Assembly (NCBI RefSeq): GCF_000026545.1
Contig: NC_011601.1
Reading direction: 5' to 3' (one strand)
DNA length: 64,000 nucleotides
From: Escherichia coli O127:H6 str. E2348/69
Lineage (GTDB): Bacteria; Pseudomonadota; Gammaproteobacteria; Enterobacterales; Enterobacteriaceae
Below are positions 2,788 to 10,414 of the stretch, piece after piece. Position 1 is the first letter of the stretch, and the number at the start of each line of letters is the position of its first letter. Both the position numbers and the translations under genes were made by a program. A model generated the notes under the pieces. The model saw only the letters and a list, made by a program, of their open reading frames with translations, was not told the origin of the DNA and made no database searches.

Positions 2788-3916
2788 ACTGAACGATCTT
2801 CTGACCACCCGTGAGCTACAACGCTGGCGATTAATTCTTGGCGAAGCGGCAGAAACGACGCTTTGTGGGCTGGATGACAACGCCCGGCAGATAGACCACG
2901 CGCTGGAGTGGCTGTATGGGCGCGATCCTGAACGGCTCCAGCGTGGTGAACGCTCTGGTGGATTAGGTGGCTCAAATCTCACCACCCCTGAGTGGATCAA
3001 CAGTATTCACACGCTGTTTCCGCAACGGGTGATCGAGCGGCTGGAAAGCGATGCCGTGCTGCGCTACGGCATTGAAGATGTGGTGACGAATCTCGACGTG
3101 CTGGAACGTATGCAGCCTTCTGAAAGCCTGCTACGCGCCGTTTTGCACACTAAACATCTGATGAATCCCGAAGTACTGGCTGCCGCCCGCCGGATAGTGC
3201 ACCAGGTTGTTGAAGAGATTATGGCGCGACTGGCAAAGGAAGTTCGTCAGGCTTTTTCTGGAGTACGCGATCGCCGTCGCCGCTCATTTATTCCACTGGC
3301 GCGAAACTTTGATTTCAAAAGTACTCTGCGCGCCAACCTGCAACACTGGCACCCGCAACACGGCAAGTTGTATATCGAATCCCCCCGCTTTAACAGCCGC
3401 ATTAAACGCCATAGCGAACAATGGCAACTGGTCCTACTGGTTGATCAAAGCGGATCAATGGTGGACTCGGTGATCCACTCCGCAGTGATGGCGGCCTGTT
3501 TATGGCAGTTACCCGGTATTCGTACCCATCTGGTGGCGTTTGACACCAGCGTCGTCGATCTCACGGCAGACGTTGTCGATCCGGTAGAATTATTAATGAA
3601 AGTGCAATTAGGCGGCGGGACCAATATCGCCAGTGCCGTGGAGTATGGTCGGCAACTTATTGAACAACCAGCGAAAAGCGTCATTATTCTCGTGAGCGAT
3701 TTTTATGAAGGTGGGTCATCATCATTGCTGACGCATCAGGTGAAAAAGTGTGTCCAGAGCGGCATCAAAGTGCTGGGGCTGGCAGCGCTCGACAGCACCG
3801 CAACGCCTTGCTATGACCGCGATATGGCCCAGGCGCTGGTTAATGTCGGCGCACAAATAGCCGCAATGACACCGGGCGAGCTGGCTTCCTGGCTTGCGGA
3901 GAATCTTCAGTCATGA
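2780..3916 (+). CDS. yehP: von Willebrand factor A (VWA) domain protein with a MIDAS motif
   Basis: ATG 2780 overlaps the yehM stop (ATGTCTGA); 378 aa; DQSGS motif at residues 222-226 (nt 3443-3457) sits after a hydrophobic strand (LVLLV), as expected for a MIDAS site. Confidence 0.85.
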   Translation: MSELNDLLTTRELQRWRLILGEAAETTLCGLDDNARQIDHALEWLYGRDPERLQRGERSGGLGGSNLTTPEWINSIHTLFPQRVIERLESDAVLRYGIEDVVTNLDVLERMQPSESLLRAVLHTKHLMNPEVLAAARRIVHQVVEEIMARLAKEVRQAFSGVRDRRRRSFIPLARNFDFKSTLRANLQHWHPQHGKLYIESPRFNSRIKRHSEQWQLVLLVDQSGSMVDSVIHSAVMAACLWQLPGIRTHLVAFDTSVVDLTADVVDPVELLMKVQLGGGTNIASAVEYGRQLIEQPAKSVIILVSDFYEGGSSSLLTHQVKKCVQSGIKVLGLAALDSTATPCYDRDMAQALVNVGAQIAAMTPGELASWLAENLQS

Positions 3917-5916
3917 ATTCACGACGTCCGGAATTATTAGAACTGACACCACAGGCACTGACGGCGTTAAGCAATGCCGGTTTTGTTAAGCGCAGCCTTA
4001 AGGAACTGGAAAATGGCAACGTCCCGGAAATCAGTCATGAGAACGGCGCTTTAATCGCCACCTTCAGTGACGGTGTCCGTACCCAGCTGGCGAACGACCA
4101 GGCACTGAAAGAGGCTCAGTGCACCTGCGGGGCCAGCGGCATGTGCCGTCATCGCGTGATGCTGGTGTTAAGTTATCAACGACTTTGTGCCACCGCCCAG
4201 CCTACGGAAAAAAAAGAAGAAGAGTGGGATCCGGCAATCTGGCTGAAAGAACTGGCTACCCTGCCCGATGCCACCCGCAAACGCGCGCAGGCGCTGGTCG
4301 CTAAAGGCATCACCATTGAGTTGTTCTGTGCGCCTGGCGAAATTCCCTCTGCCCGATTACCGATGAGCGATGTGCGTTTTTATTCCCGCAGCAGCATTCG
4401 CTTCGCACGCTGTGATTGCATTGAAGGCACACTTTGCGAACATGTCGCACTGGCTGTGCAAGCCTTCGTCGAGGCCAAAACTCAGCAAGCGGAATTTACT
4501 CATTTAATCTGGCAGATGCGCAGTGAACACGCCACATCATCTGATGATCCGTTTGCCAGCGAAGAAGGCAAAACGTGTCGTCAATATGTTCAGCAATTAA
4601 GCCAGGCATTATGGCTGGGCGGGATAAGTCAACCGCCAATCCATTACGAGGCCGCTTTCAGTCGCGCGCAGCAAGCGGCAGAACGCTGCAACTGGCGATG
4701 GGTGAGTGAATCGCTACGGCAATTGCGCGCCAGTGTTGATGCCTTCCACGCCCGTGCCAGCCACTACCATGCCGGAGAATGCTTACGTCAGCTTGCGGCA
4801 TTAAACAGTCGATTAAATTGCGCACAAAAGATGGCGCGGCGCGACAGTGTTGGTGAAGTTCCTCCTGTGCCCTGGCGCACGGTCGTTGGCGCTGACATTG
4901 CCGGAGAAGCAAAACTTGATCATCTGCGGCTGGTGTCTTTAGGTATGCGTTGCTGGCAGGATATTGAGCAGTATGGTTTACGCATCTGGTTTACCGATCC
5001 CGACACAGGAAGTATTTTGCATCTTTCGCGTAGTTGGCAGAGAAGCGAACAGGAAAACTCACCGGCAGCGACGCGTCGGCTGTTTAGTTTTCAGGCTGGC
5101 GCACTGGCAGGTGGGCAAATTGTTTCACAAGCTGCAAAACGCAGTGCCGATGGCGAGCTGCTGTTAGCGACCCGTAACCGCTTGAGTAGTGTTGTTCCAC
5201 TGTCGCCAGACGCCTGGCAAATGTTGAGCGCGCCGTTGCGCCAGCCGGGCATTGTGGCTTTGCGGGAATATTTACGCCAGCGTCCCCCCGCCTGCATACG
5301 ACCACTCAACCAGGTCGATAACTTATTTATTCTGCCGGTAGCGGAGTGTATTTCGCTCGGTTGGGATAGCAGCCGCCAGACGCTGGATGCGCAGGTAATC
5401 AGCGGCGAAGGGGAAGATAATGTGCTGACGTTATCCCTTCCGGCATCTGCCTGTTCTCCTTTTGCCGTTGAACGCATGGCGGCGCTTTTGCAACAAACAG
5501 ACGACCCCGTGAGTCTGGTTTCTGGCTTTGTCAGTTTTGTAGAGGGGCAATTGACACTGGAACCACGGGTGATGATGACAAAAACCCGCGCCTGGGCGCT
5601 GGACGCAGAAACTGCGCCTGTGGCACCGCTACCTTCTGCCAGCGTTCTGCCTGTGCCGCCTACCGCTCATCAGTTGCTGATGCGCTGCCAGGCGTTACTT
5701 ATTCAACTGCTCCATAACGGCTGGCGCTATCAGGAACAGAGTGCTATTGGTGAGGCAGAGTTGCTGGCGAATGACCTCACCGCGGTGGGTTTTTATCGGC
5801 TGGCACATGTGTTGGGACAATTTCGTAATACAGAAAGCGAGGCACGGGTAGAAGCAATGAATAACGGTGTTTTACTTTGCGAACAATTATTCCCCATGCT
5901 TCAGCAACAAGGATGA
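3913..5916 (+). CDS. yehQ: SWIM zinc-finger domain protein
   Basis: ATG 3913 overlaps the yehP stop (ATGA); two CxCx5CxH motifs at nt 4120-4152 and 4411-4443; 667 aa if this start is used, but the start is uncertain. Confidence 0.75.
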   Translation: MNSRRPELLELTPQALTALSNAGFVKRSLKELENGNVPEISHENGALIATFSDGVRTQLANDQALKEAQCTCGASGMCRHRVMLVLSYQRLCATAQPTEKKEEEWDPAIWLKELATLPDATRKRAQALVAKGITIELFCAPGEIPSARLPMSDVRFYSRSSIRFARCDCIEGTLCEHVALAVQAFVEAKTQQAEFTHLIWQMRSEHATSSDDPFASEEGKTCRQYVQQLSQALWLGGISQPPIHYEAAFSRAQQAAERCNWRWVSESLRQLRASVDAFHARASHYHAGECLRQLAALNSRLNCAQKMARRDSVGEVPPVPWRTVVGADIAGEAKLDHLRLVSLGMRCWQDIEQYGLRIWFTDPDTGSILHLSRSWQRSEQENSPAATRRLFSFQAGALAGGQIVSQAAKRSADGELLLATRNRLSSVVPLSPDAWQMLSAPLRQPGIVALREYLRQRPPACIRPLNQVDNLFILPVAECISLGWDSSRQTLDAQVISGEGEDNVLTLSLPASACSPFAVERMAALLQQTDDPVSLVSGFVSFVEGQLTLEPRVMMTKTRAWALDAETAPVAPLPSASVLPVPPTAHQLLMRCQALLIQLLHNGWRYQEQSAIGEAELLANDLTAVGFYRLAHVLGQFRNTESEARVEAMNNGVLLCEQLFPMLQQQG

Positions 5917-6040
5917 AATAGTGCTTTTTATTAAGAGTTCTACTCCTGTTCCGGACTGCTCACGCCACAGTATTAGGCATATCCTATATAGCCCCTGGTG
6001 AGAGTCACCAGTTCCTTGATTAAATAAAATGGAGTTTTAC

Positions 6041-6502
6041 ATGAAGGCTTTCAATAAGCTGTTTTCCCTTGTTGTTGCATCTGTTCTGGTTTTCTCTCTT
6101 GCTGGCTGCGGTGACAAAGAAGAATCAAAGAAATTCAGCGCCAATCTGAACGGCACTGAAATTGCCATTACCTATGTCTACAAAGGTGACAAGGTGCTTA
6201 AGCAATCTTCTGAAACCAAAATTCAATTTGCCTCCATTGGTGCAACCACCAAAGAAGATGCCGCCAGGACACTTGAGCCGTTAAGCGCTAAATACAAAAA
6301 CATCGCGGGTGTTGAAGAAAAATTAACCTATACCGATACCTACGCGCAGGAAAACGTGACTATTGATATGGAAAAAGTGGATTTTAACGCCCTGCAGGGT
6401 ATTTCAGGAATCAACGTTTCTGCTGAAGATGCTAAAAAAGGTATCACTATGGCGCAAATGGAACTGGTGATGAAAGCCGCTGGTTTTAAAGAAGTGAAAT
6501 AA
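6041..6502 (+). CDS. yehR: Lipoprotein (signal peptide with lipobox LAGC)
   Basis: ATG 6041 with GGAG 6 nt upstream; N-terminus MKAFNKLFSLVVASVLVFSLAGC is a typical lipoprotein signal; 153 aa. Confidence 0.85.
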   Translation: MKAFNKLFSLVVASVLVFSLAGCGDKEESKKFSANLNGTEIAITYVYKGDKVLKQSSETKIQFASIGATTKEDAARTLEPLSAKYKNIAGVEEKLTYTDTYAQENVTIDMEKVDFNALQGISGINVSAEDAKKGITMAQMELVMKAAGFKEVK

Positions 6503-6508
6503 TCTGTC

Positions 6509-6533
6509 GGCGGCCATGTTTCGCATGGCCGCC
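6509..6533. terminator. Perfect 10-bp inverted repeat (GGCGGCCATG / CATGGCCGCC, 5-nt loop) between convergent yehR and yehS
   Basis: Read directly from the sequence; no clear U-tract on either strand, so termination is inferred from position only. Confidence 0.45.
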
Positions 6534-6542
6534 ATACCCGTC

Positions 6543-7013
6543 TTAGCTTTTCTTCACATGCTGGCGCGCTGCCAGTCCACGCAGAAAATAACGTAAAAAT
6601 TGATCGCCGCATTCGCGGAAGTTTTTATGATCCGGTGCACGCATCATCGCCGTAATTTCCGGCATCGAAACGCGGAACTGCTGTTCGGTGAGGATTGCCA
6701 GAATGTCATCGGTTTTAAGCGAAAACGCGATGCGTAATTTTTTCAGCACGATGTTGTTATTAATGCGACGTTCCGGCTCCAGTGCCAGAGCAGACTCATC
6801 CTTGCCGCGTTTTTCATAAATCAGGCCATTGAGGAATGAAGACAAAACAATGTCCGGACAACGCTGAAAACCCTCTTCGTCTTCTTTACGTAGCCAGACG
6901 GCGATCTGTTCCGCGGTGGCTTCGACATTACCCAGCGCCAGAATACGCACCAGGTCATTATTATTGGCTTTCAAAATGTAGCGCACGCTGCGCAGAATAT
7001 CGTTACTTAGCAT
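6543..7013 (-). CDS. yehS: Uncharacterized protein, immediately downstream of btsR
   Basis: ORF on the minus strand; start placed at the Met giving MLSNDILRSV (156 aa); the track ORF extends 19 codons further upstream. Confidence 0.75.
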   Translation of the reverse strand: MLSNDILRSVRYILKANNNDLVRILALGNVEATAEQIAVWLRKEDEEGFQRCPDIVLSSFLNGLIYEKRGKDESALALEPERRINNNIVLKKLRIAFSLKTDDILAILTEQQFRVSMPEITAMMRAPDHKNFRECGDQFLRYFLRGLAARQHVKKS

Positions 7014-7059
7014 GAGGCCTTCAGGTGTTGATGAGGCAAAAAGCCATTTTAGCAGTCTT

Positions 7060-7779
7060 TTACAGGCCAATCGCCTCTTTTAAGCTTTTCAGATAACGGC
7101 GGCTGACCGGCACGGTTAAGCCATTACGCAAAATCAACTCGGCCTGGCCGTTATCTTCCAGACGGATCTCCTGTAAATGCGCGAGGTTAACCAGATACTG
7201 ACGATGGCAGCGCAGTAGTGGTGTACGACTTTCCAGGGTACGTAATGTCAGTTCGGTAAAGCCCTCTTTCCCTTCGTGACTGGTAACGTAGACACCGCTC
7301 ATCCGACTGCTGACAAATGCCACATCTTTCATTTGCAGCAAATAAATCCGACTATGCCCCGTACAAGGGATAAATTTCAGCGCCTGTTGATTTTCCGGTA
7401 ACAACGAAACATCCTGCTTGCTGCGCTCCTGACGCAATCGCGCCAGCGTTTTCTCCAGTCGCGCTTCATCAATTGGCTTCAGCAGATAATCAAAGGCATG
7501 TTCTTCAAAGGCTTTAATGGCGTATTCGTCAAACGCGGTGAGAAAAACAATATACGGGCGATGTTCCGGGTCGAGCATCCCCACCATTTCCAGACCACTG
7601 ATGCGCGGCATCTGGATATCGAGAAACAGCACATCCGGGCGCAGTTTATGCACCGCGCCGATCCCTTCTACGGCGTTTGAACACTCTCCAACGATTTCAA
7701 TATCGCTCTGCTCCTGCAAAAATACGCGCAGGTTCTCCCGTGCTAACGGTTCATCATCGACAATTAAGACTTTAATCAT
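7060..7779 (-). CDS. btsR: LytTR-family response regulator (receiver domain plus LytTR DNA-binding domain)
   Basis: N-terminus [17 protein letters not shown] is a receiver domain; 239 aa; start overlaps the btsS stop (ATGA). Confidence 0.9.
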
Positions 7780-9461
7780 GCCTCGTCCCTCCATGGTAGT
7801 CGTAACGTTATTCGGGTGTAACTATCAGGCTCACAGGCGACGCTTATCCCATAGTCATCGCCAAACCGTTCACGTAAACGCTTATCCACCAGATTCATCC
7901 CCAGCCCACTGGCATTGGTTACCGGTTGATACAAACCGGCATTGTCTTCGATCTCCAGCATCAAATGTTGCCCCTCACGTCGGGCGCTGATTGCCACTCG
8001 CCCTGTATCCAGCAGTTGTGATGTCCCATGTTTAATGGCGTTTTCCACTATCGGTTGCAGGGTAAACGCGGGCAATTGCTGCTGGGATAATTCTTGCGGA
8101 ATAGCAATGTTGACCTGCAACCGCGACTGGAAGCGCGCCTTTTCAATTTGCAGATAAGCGTTCACATGTTCAATTTCGTCGGCGAGAGTAACAAACTCCG
8201 AAGGCCGCTTTAAGTTTTTGCGGAAAAAAGTAGAAAGATACTGCACCAGCTGGCTGGCCTGTTCGCTGTCGCGGCGGATCACCGCTTTAATGGTGTTAAG
8301 CGCATTAAACAAAAAATGGGGATTCACCTGGGCGTGAAGCAGTTTGATCTCTGACTGGGTGAGCATCGCTTTTTGCCGCTCATATTGCCCGGCGAGGATC
8401 TGCGCCGAAAGCAGTTGCGCAATCCCCTCGCCCAGCGTGCGGTTGATTGAACTGAATAAACGGTTTTTGGCCTCATACAATTTGATGGTACCCATCACTC
8501 GCTGATTTTCACCACGCAACGGAATGACCAGCGTCGACCCCAGTTTGCATTGCGGATGCAAAGAGCAACGGTAAGGCACTTCGTTGCCATCAGCGTAGAC
8601 CACTTCACCGGTTTCAATCGCTTTTAAGGTATAAGTCGAAGAAATCGGTTTGCCGGGTAAATGGTGGTCGTCACCAATTCCGGTAAAGGCCAGCAATTTC
8701 TCTCGATCGGTAATCGCGACTGCACCAATATCCAGCTCCTGATACAGCACCTGTGCCACTTTCATGCTGTTCACTTCGTTAAACCCCTGGCGCAAAATGC
8801 CTTCCGTCGAGGCCGCCACTTTCAGCGCAGTGGCAGAAAAAGCCGAAGTGTATTTTTCAAACATCGCGCGTTTATCGAGCAATATACGCATAAACAGTGC
8901 CGCGCCGACGGTATTGGTGACCATCATTGGCGCAGCAATATTACTCACCAGACGCACCGCATCTTCATAAGGTCGGGCGATCGCCAGGATAATCAACATT
9001 TGCACCATTTCAGCGACGAACGTGACGGCACCGGCGGTAATGGGGTTAAAGACTTTATCAGTGCGCCCGCGACGGATCAGGATGCTGTGTACCATGCCAC
9101 CGAGCAATCCTTCAACGATGGTCGAGATCATGCAACTTAGCGCGGTCATGCCCCCCATCGAATATCGATGTAACCCGCCGGTCAGACCAACCAGCCCACC
9201 GACGACCGGACCGCCGAGTAAGCCGCCCATTACCGCACCTATCGCACGGGTATTGGCAATAGAATCGTCAATGTGCAACCCAAACCAGGTGCCCATGATG
9301 CAGAAGATGGAAAAGACGATGTAGCAGAGAAATTTATGCGGCAGACGAACCGTGACCTGCATTAACGGTATGAATAATGGCGTTTTACTCATTAACCACG
9401 CAATGACTAAAAAAACGCACATCTGCTGAAGCAGCAGCAACACCAGATTAAAATCGTACAT
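7776..9461 (-). CDS. btsS: LytS-type membrane sensor histidine kinase
   Basis: Multi-pass hydrophobic N-terminus followed by a histidine-kinase core; 561 aa from the Met giving [11 protein letters not shown]. Confidence 0.9.
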
Positions 9462-9682
9462 ACCCGCAAACCACACTTCCCTTTAAAACGCGTAACATAC
9501 ATTGCTTGCGTTTAACTTTCTTTGAACTCTTGCAGAAAAATGAGAATTCGTGAGTACGATCACTCAAAATCGCCTGGCAAAAATAAAATCACCCTATAGA
9601 TGCACAAAAAACAGGCAAAACTACCTGGTTCGCAAAACTGCGTCTAAAGTTAAACCGGGACCTCGCGAGCAAGGGTGAGACG

Positions 9683-10414
9683 ATGGCGCTTTACACAATT
9701 GGTGAAGTGGCGTTGCTTTGTGATATTAACCCTGTCACGTTACGCGCGTGGCAGAGGCGTTACGGATTGCTGAAACCGCAGCGGACAGACGGCGGTCATC
9801 GGCTGTTCAACGATGCCGATATTGACCGGATCCGCGAGATCAAACGCTGGATCGACAACGGTGTGCAGGTCAGCAAAGTAAAAATGCTGCTCAGTAATGA
9901 AAATGTTGATGTGCAGAACGGCTGGCGCGATCAGCAAGAAACATTACTGACTTACCTGCAAAGCGGCAATCTGCATAGCCTGCGAACGTGGATCAAAGAG
10001 CGCGGTCAGGATTACCCCGCCCAGACACTCACCACACATCTGTTTATTCCTCTGCGCCGACGGCTTCAGTGCCAACAACCGACTCTCCAGACGCTGCTGG
10101 CGATCCTCGACGGCGTACTGATCAACTACATCTCTATTTGCCTGGCTTCGGCGCGCAAAAAACAGGGTAAAGATGCACTGGTGGTTGGCTGGAATATTCA
10201 GGATACCACTCGTCTGTGGCTGGAGGGCTGGATTGCCAGTCAACAAGGATGGCGCATTGATGTCCTCGCCCACTCGCTCAATCAACTACGCCCTGAACTG
10301 TTCGAAGGCCGTACATTGCTGGTGTGGTGCGGTGATAATCGAACCTCCGCCCAACAACAGCAACTCACCCGTTGGCAGGAACAAGGCCATGATATTTTCC
10401 CACTCGGCATTTAA
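9683..10414 (+). CDS. mlrA: MerR-family transcriptional regulator
   Basis: N-terminal MerR-type helix-turn-helix (YTIGEVALLCDINPVTLRAWQRRYGLL); 243 aa. Confidence 0.9.
   Translation: MALYTIGEVALLCDINPVTLRAWQRRYGLLKPQRTDGGHRLFNDADIDRIREIKRWIDNGVQVSKVKMLLSNENVDVQNGWRDQQETLLTYLQSGNLHSLRTWIKERGQDYPAQTLTTHLFIPLRRRLQCQQPTLQTLLAILDGVLINYISICLASARKKQGKDALVVGWNIQDTTRLWLEGWIASQQGWRIDVLAHSLNQLRPELFEGRTLLVWCGDNRTSAQQQQLTRWQEQGHDIFPLGI

Follow-up and report, generated by a model that had tools for sequence, protein, structure and literature searches.

Does yehS, an uncharacterised gene lying directly downstream of the two-component genes btsS and btsR (also known as yehU and yehT), belong to the pyruvate-sensing system that these two genes encode, or is it a neighbour with a life of its own? 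The question arises from an initial annotation of a 64,000-nucleotide (nt) stretch of Escherichia coli O127:H6 str. E2348/69, hereafter the window, where the region is 100% identical to that strain. It was proposed there that yehS is probably co-transcribed with the sensor and regulator genes and may be an accessory to the signalling system. The reading that we favour, with reasonable but far from complete confidence, is different, that is, that yehS is an independently promoted gene, that its product is probably a nucleic acid-binding protein and that its link to btsSR is one of position only.

Transcription of yehS

The first part of the answer is already published, since yehS has its own constitutive sigma-70 promoter of the extended -10 type, which was shown in K-12 by others. 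The features concerned are the following (positions are those of the window).

7013..6543, minus strand: yehS, 156 amino acids (aa), two DUF1456 repeats, ATG at 7013
7022-7018, minus strand: Shine-Dalgarno GAAGG of yehS, read in the sequence
7043-7039, minus strand: approximate transcription start of yehS (7043 by rapid amplification of cDNA ends (RACE), about 7039 as predicted from the -10 hexamer), giving a 5' untranslated region (5'UTR) of about 26-30 nt
7054-7046, minus strand: extended -10 promoter of yehS, TGcTAAAAT, with the hexamer TAAAAT at 7051-7046
7059-7014, minus strand: spacer between btsR and yehS, exactly 46 nt, without terminator or significant structure
7062-7060, minus strand: stop codon of btsR, read in the sequence

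TGcTAAAAT sits 5 nt past the btsR stop, the upstream part of the promoter falls in the 3' coding region of btsR, and no good -35 is present. In the Reg-Seq study, the yehS promoter was picked from a RACE start in RegulonDB (K-12 position 2212226, i.e. window 7043) and numbered from a zero at K-12 2212241, 15 bp upstream of that start (PMC7567609); K-12 coordinates are converted into window positions by subtracting 2,205,183. A mutational -10 footprint was reported at +5 to +12 under each of the nine growth conditions given for yehS (heat shock, iron, LB, M9, anaerobic, trehalose, zinc, xylose/arabinose and xanthosine), either called as a separate site (five of the nine) or contained in a merged RNA polymerase footprint extending to +12 to +17 (four of the nine), and a stretch assigned to an 'activator' adjoins it at -2/-4 to +5 (PMC7567609). 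Transferred to the window, the footprint covers 7053-7046 (GCTAAAAT) and the TG at 7054-7053 forms the end of the stretch next to it; we would count this 'activator' signal as belonging to the extended -10. A separate line of published work lists yehS among the constitutive promoters selected in vitro with RpoD holoenzyme by systematic evolution of ligands by exponential enrichment, with the site between yehT and yehS (Shimada et al., PMC3946193), and reports an RpoE-holoenzyme peak inside yehT (Shimada et al., PMC5493296). These K-12 data transfer directly to the window, because the spacer is identical to that of MG1655 and only one base differs in 201 aligned nt (the spacer, 130 nt upstream in btsR and the first 25 nt of yehS). 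Our own promoter scan of 6000-9900 did not detect the yehS promoter, since it requires both hexamers and TGcTAAAAT is an extended -10 without a usable -35.

A longer form of the gene was also considered, a 175-aa yehS starting at a TTG at 7070 and overlapping the btsR stop, which is called in some public records (P0001, and 174-aa forms in Salmonella). It was rejected as the real start and is likely to be an annotation artefact, because the spacer lengths do not fall into multiples of three nt and transcription begins downstream of the TTG.

The promoter is conserved well beyond E. coli. A scan with YehS of one genome per species gave 157 relatives, of which the best 80 (all Enterobacteriaceae, 75-99% identity) were compared, with Yersinia, Serratia and Vibrio-level relatives falling outside these 80 loci. 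A TAnAnT hexamer ends 28-42 nt upstream of the yehS ATG in 76 of the 80, against 10.6% of shuffled 60-mers, while the remaining four carry an insertion between the hexamer, which has stayed next to the btsR stop, and yehS; as the loci share ancestry, these counts cannot be treated as independent. The hexamer varies between TAAAAT, TAGAAT, TACACT, TAGACT, TAAACT and TAGAGT (the last one twice), a TG is found at -15/-14 in 59 of the 80, and the full TGNTANNNT occurs no more than 70 nt from the ATG in 59 of the 80 species (6.5% of shuffles). Around it, the spacer sequence diverges strongly among genera while the hexamer keeps its position. The spacer is 42-55 nt long in 70 of the 78 loci that retain the gene order and 102-178 nt in the eight that carry insertions, and its length is not tied to multiples of three. 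A fixed -10 amid a diverging spacer is the pattern that selection on a promoter would produce. The ribosome-binding element is common as well, with GAAGG or AAAGG preceding the yehS ATG in most of the loci compared.

Two other properties of the spacer are recorded here in their own right. Downstream of the promoter, the yehS 5'UTR at 7026-7043 carries a U-rich and then CAUCA-type stretch (GGCUUUUUGCCUCAUCAACA in E. coli, GCAUUUUUCAUCA in Klebsiella and Kluyvera), which recurs across genera (L014-L069) despite divergence elsewhere in the spacer and may be an initial-transcribed or regulatory element. Some Citrobacter and Kluyvera loci carry imperfect-palindromic spacer insertions of 60-130 nt (GTATACTCGTCGCGCTTCAAGTTGCAGC ... 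GCAACTCGAATTGCTTAGAGTATA), which we take to resemble ERIC/IRU repeats, and a different spacer insertion of about 55 nt is found in Trabulsiella (L077, L080).

About 5820-6000 in locus coordinates, between btsR and yehS: spacer insertions in L013, L019, L021, L023, L025 and L027

Having its own promoter does not preclude transcription from further upstream, for which the rest of the locus has to be considered.

9490, minus strand: transcription start of btsS (yehU), 2214673 in the Reg-Seq supplement mapped to the window, 29 nt upstream of the ATG
9461..7776, minus strand: btsS (yehU), a 561-aa LytS-type pyruvate-sensing histidine kinase (open reading frame and Pfam domains 5TM-5TMR_LYT, GAF, His_kinase and HATPase_c)
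7779-7776, minus strand: ATGA shared by the stop codon of btsS and the start codon of btsR, read directly in the sequence
7779..7060, minus strand: btsR (yehT), a 239-aa LytTR response regulator (open reading frame, Response_reg and LytTR domains, annotation)
6509-6533, no strand assigned: hairpin between yehS and yehR, an 11-bp G+C-rich inverted repeat in a 40-nt gap
6029..6502, plus strand: yehR, a DUF1307 lipoprotein gene convergent with yehS, which marks the end of the yehS unit

The geometry described in the initial annotation is correct on both counts, with the ATGA overlap between btsS and btsR and a same-strand yehS beginning 46 nt after the btsR stop. Read-through from btsSR into yehS is plausible, and judging from this arrangement likely, because the genes lie on the same strand with a 46-nt gap and no terminator in the spacer. 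No terminator-like site was found at 7059-7014 in the promoter/terminator scan of 6000-9900, in which the nearest minus-strand terminator candidates are two weak 5-bp stems at 6993-6981, inside the yehS coding region. The structure predicted for the spacer RNA is no more stable than those of shuffled sequences (z = -0.44), and an Rfam scan of 5900-9800 at E <= 1 gave no match, hence no known riboswitch or small RNA in the spacer. An untranslated gap of 46 nt is also short for Rho loading. Searches of the available literature found no transcript-level evidence for btsR-yehS co-transcription. The three genes thus share the strand, the short distances and the absence of intervening terminators that characterise a single operon, but not the last of its usual features, a distal gene devoid of a promoter of its own. 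The proposal of probable co-transcription therefore survives as plausible read-through and falters on the published, conserved promoter of yehS; an independent promoter of this kind is precisely what the initial annotation had named as counting against it, and both the K-12 data and the conservation across species supply it.

At the other end, the annotation had described the repeat beyond yehS as a non-terminating inverted repeat. The repeat is there, and a U-run next to its stem is indeed absent in Escherichia on both strands, but the word 'non-terminating' was an assumption and is not justified by (i) its stability, with folding energies of -22.3 kcal/mol for the yehS strand (z = -3.2 against shuffles) and -22.5 kcal/mol for the yehR strand (z = -4.1), (ii) a compensatory C:G to A:U change of the stem in one Escherichia lineage (L006) and (iii) the canonical bidirectional terminators, with A-run, stem and T-run, that occupy the same place in Enterobacter, Lelliottia, Leclercia, Siccibacter and some Citrobacter. 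The hairpin has the G+C-rich stem of an intrinsic terminator and not its U-run, and is, from its sequence and folding, probably a shared 3'-end or terminator element for yehS and yehR, the efficiency of which is uncertain without a U-run. The transcription unit ends at yehS whether or not the hairpin terminates efficiently.

The arrangement that best accounts for these observations is a nested transcription unit with an internal promoter, of which there are many in E. coli. As in such units, yehS lies on the same strand as the preceding gene across a short gap with no intervening terminator, its promoter is embedded in the 3' end of that gene and the spacer, and a terminator-like hairpin follows the last gene. 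yehS would be the last gene of this unit, and transcription from the btsS promoter at 9490 could reach it because nothing terminates in the 46-nt spacer. It would also be transcribed alone from TGcTAAAAT (a K-12 result by others, for a sequence identical in the window), and transcription would in both cases stop at the hairpin that yehS has in common with the convergent yehR. The product would be a small, basic, cytoplasmic protein with two DUF1456 repeats, from a family spread over many bacterial phyla.

YehS and the DUF1456 family

What might such a protein do? YehS matches PF07308 (DUF1456) at 172.8 bits, for a cut-off of 27, in two stretches corresponding to repeats at aa 4-70 and roughly 85-152. 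It is a full two-repeat member of what NCBI calls the 'YehS family protein', with no difference from the family, which is without assigned function or solved structure. The two halves have no detectable similarity to one another by BLASTP (E = 13), though both fit the DUF1456 profile. The family is large (899 clusters at 50% identity and at least 7,685 at 90% identity), with members in Oceanospirillaceae, Bdellovibrionota, Fusobacteriota, cyanobacteria, Nitrospirae and Desulfobacterota. A sequence search of the PDB returned no solved relative (best E = 0.85, to arcadin-1), and PADLOC gave no defence-system match.

In an AlphaFold2 model of high confidence (pLDDT 96.8, pTM 0.90, from a 69-sequence alignment), each repeat is predicted to fold as a lambda-repressor-like domain of the helix-turn-helix (HTH) type, with four helices in domain 1 (3-14, 18-27, 34-40 and 54-69) and four in domain 2 (86-96, 101-110, 117-123 and 137-155). 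The fold matches of the model are DNA-binding HTH proteins, including repressor/antirepressor and Aca, with moderate similarity. YehS differs from the XRE (Cro/C1-type), lambda-repressor-like and POU proteins in that sequence identity is 3-23% with no HTH profile, the connection between helices H2 and H3 is longer than the canonical turn, and a conserved 13-residue loop, K-K-E-D-x-x-G-F-x-x-C-x-D, precedes the last helix. Residues R69/G70, N86/N87 and R125 of YehS are invariant. The protein has a basic core and a pI of 9.2 (homologue median 8.7), and about 25 of 147 homologue cluster representatives (~17%) carry lysine-rich C-terminal tails, which E. coli YehS does not have. One homologue, P0232, has its two DUF1456 repeats fused to a DEAD-box helicase and another, P0182, has DUF1456 repeats fused to a GNAT acetyltransferase. 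From the predicted fold, the basic core, the lysine-rich tails, the helicase fusion and neighbouring genes for a helicase, an ABC-F ATPase, a cold-shock-domain (CSD) protein and release factor 1 (RF1), which together amount to moderate evidence, YehS is most likely a nucleic acid-binding protein, whether of DNA or RNA. As for the tails themselves, they are of low complexity, with the recurring motifs YxNPN and KLSLKK and a terminal W-G/K (P0137, P0138, P0142, P0145, P0166, P0207, P0248 and others).

The neighbours just mentioned come from twelve distant homologues whose surroundings were looked up. One contig was too short, two genes at a contig edge show their upstream side only, and with three near-identical places counted as one there are ten informative loci, with flanks of up to 5-7 kb per side where the contig allows. 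The neighbours differ from locus to locus (PadR and MFS genes, acnB, a BCCT transporter, acetyl-CoA carboxylase, LarB/LarC, a PIN toxin), but at three places they are related to RNA: in Cetobacterium the DUF1456 gene precedes prfA-prmC (RF1/PrmC), together with an ECF sigma factor; on a Nitrospirae contig it is divergent from a DEAD-box helicase; and on a Desulfobacterota contig it follows an ABC-F ATPase near a CSD gene. With the P0232 fusion, the basic core and the tails, these loci would suit a more specific explanation, in which YehS would associate with RNA or the ribosome as an auxiliary RNA-binding module, such as those attached to DEAD-box helicases, and have no relation to two-component signalling. 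This is possible but doubtful, as it draws on four anecdotal associations among many variable contexts, whereas the fold matches are DNA-binding HTH proteins and E. coli YehS is itself tailless.

These same fold matches invite the opposite specialisation, that is, a sequence-specific transcription factor with tandem, POU-like HTH domains, which might act at or near the targets of BtsR or MlrA. It seems to us neither better nor worse founded than a role on RNA, hence doubtful too, considering that no HTH-family profile matches, the H2-H3 loop exceeds the canonical turn, the Foldseek matches are not significant and the papers found do not list YehS with the E. coli regulators that have been characterised. 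Nor is there a BtsR-box-like direct repeat near yehS, where only single half-sites occur. For this comparison the half-site was taken to be ACCRCTYA, and the result was set aside as uninformative, with 11 single matches in 64 kb where 6.3 are expected and no direct-repeat pair.

The association of yehS with btsSR

The gene order itself is solid. Of 5,426 complete E. coli genomes, 5,425 have btsS, btsR, yehS, yehR and mlrA annotated as one block (in E2348/69 the annotated btsS and that of the window agree at 100% identity), and 78 of the 80 Enterobacteriaceae species genomes retain the order mlrA<- ->btsS-btsR-yehS. It is not a product of chance, but it is ordinary and long annotated. The window btsS and btsR match the BtsS/BtsR (YehU/YehT) of the literature in their 4-bp overlap and domain composition, and yehS is their physical neighbour, encoding a protein with no kinase, receiver or LytTR domain.

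Two genomes of the genus Siccibacter show what becomes of yehS away from btsSR. In S. turicensis (L030, 5849-12468) the order is mlrA (-), yehS (+), metG (-), an open reading frame of 193 aa (+), an apbC/mrp-like ParA ATPase gene (+) and btsS (+), so that yehS adjoins mlrA, divergent from it over a 152-nt gap, and btsS is 4.6 kb off, beyond metG and the apbC-like gene. The same mlrA-yehS junction is present in S. colletis (L033), where btsS and btsR were not found within the 12.5-kb locus. Siccibacter yehS keeps about 45 nt of its upstream sequence, including the -10 element (TGATACACT / TGGTACACT). Since the genes are separated and the promoter element has moved along, Siccibacter yehS must be expressed independently of btsSR. 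Further afield, a LytS-type kinase or LytTR regulator stands beside the DUF1456 gene in none of the ten informative distant loci, within the stored flanks, which suggests that the adjacency of yehS to btsSR is specific to the Enterobacteriaceae lineage.

These comparisons bear directly on the idea that YehS is an operon-encoded accessory or connector that tunes the output of BtsS/BtsR, and perhaps of YpdA/YpdB, by protein contacts. Small connector or accessory proteins of two-component systems do exist, such as PmrD, SafA and MzrA, and YehS resembles them in its small size and in the position of its gene beside a two-component system. The same-strand arrangement with a 46-nt gap and no terminator, together with the order conserved in 78 of the 80 Enterobacteriaceae species, would fit such a role, and HTH-like folds can serve as protein-interaction modules, as the repressor/antirepressor and Aca matches illustrate. 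Yet no relation of fold or sequence between YehS and these connectors was found, and yehS is constitutive rather than induced by another system, from a conserved promoter of its own. An association kept across unrelated lineages, as might be expected of a connector and its partners, is not what is observed either (78 of 80 Enterobacteriaceae, none of ten distant loci, and Siccibacter uncoupled).

The literature gives this idea little to build on. No report of an effect of YehS on BtsSR, or of an interaction with it, was found in what is searchable, which does not cover older J. Bacteriol. papers. The open-access BtsSR/YpdAB papers, including a comparative genomics study, leave yehS unmentioned, and a Salmonella study of yehUT confines the operon to these two genes and describes yehS as a conserved hypothetical gene next to it. 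The phenotypes attached to yehS comprise a lower expression variability in adapted populations and, in the passage concerned, no reported increase in motility for a deletion mutant, as well as effects on solvent tolerance, copper resistance and tetracycline antagonism under CRISPR interference; they are mild and unconnected to pyruvate sensing or BtsSR. YehS has reportedly also been examined in two-hybrid assays with these kinases and regulators in the K. Jung laboratory, which is given as a lead only. A connector role is therefore quite unlikely in our view, and the suggestion that yehS may be an accessory to the signalling is left with Enterobacteriaceae-level synteny as its one support, against the distant loci and Siccibacter. 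Still less likely, and to be treated as speculation, is a hybrid of these ideas, according to which the DUF1456 proteins would be unrecognised, phylum-spanning, tandem HTH-like nucleic acid binders (possibly RNA-directed, in view of the lysine-rich tails, the fusion to a DEAD-box helicase and the neighbouring ABC-F, CSD and RF1 genes), whose Enterobacteriaceae member became fixed beside btsSR, with read-through partly coupling its expression to the pyruvate sensor so that it tunes the response post-transcriptionally or at the promoter.

The reading of yehS as an independently promoted gene for a probable nucleic acid-binding protein, tied to btsSR by position only, has to be weighed against several points that count the other way. 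Concerning the promoter, Reg-Seq measures expression from a plasmid reporter, the exact start is uncertain as the RACE position, 7043, is only 3 nt from the -10 hexamer, and read-through may contribute to YehS levels alongside the internal promoter. Concerning the protein, Foldseek found nothing significant in PDB and BFVD (the weak single-domain matches of low root-mean-square deviation are again XRE-type), no HTH family matches the sequence (only PF07308 in Pfam at E <= 0.01, nothing in NCBIfam), small helical bundles match HTH folds easily, and the RNA-related associations (three loci and one fusion) are anecdotal. Concerning the link to btsSR, an order conserved in 78 of 80 genomes is at least compatible with a functional tie, and the comparison covers 80 Enterobacteriaceae loci and ten distant ones, with intermediate taxa that have BtsSR (other Enterobacterales, Vibrio) lying between the two.

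Surroundings of the locus and significance

Some observations on the surroundings of yehS are of interest for those working on the neighbouring genes. The Reg-Seq RACE start for 'yehT' (K-12 2212969) corresponds to window 7786, 7 nt upstream of the btsR ATG, and its -10 footprint maps to 7804-7793 on the minus strand, inside btsS (TACCAT at 7798-7793); such a start would imply an internal promoter from which a btsR mRNA with almost no leader is made. Upstream of btsS, a perfect 5-6-5 palindrome, TGAGTacgatcACTCA, occupies 9551-9566 between mlrA and btsS, at a distance of 61-76 nt upstream from the published start of btsS transcription, and adjoins what Reg-Seq interprets as an FNR activator site. 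On the far side of yehS, yehQ (3913-5916) encodes a 667-aa SWIM zinc-finger protein and is, like yehR, an uncharacterised neighbour, and yehR next to yehS is variable or absent in many genera.

What does this mean for YehS? The locus as such offers little that is new, as annotation already records the gene order and published data sets contain the yehS promoter, and the position of yehS beside btsSR should not count as evidence for a place of YehS in the pyruvate-sensing pathway. What interest remains is in YehS itself, a conserved E. coli protein to which no function has been assigned but which has a confident predicted structure of two lambda-repressor-like domains and thousands of relatives across phyla; the fusions and neighbours of the family point toward nucleic acid, possibly RNA, biology.

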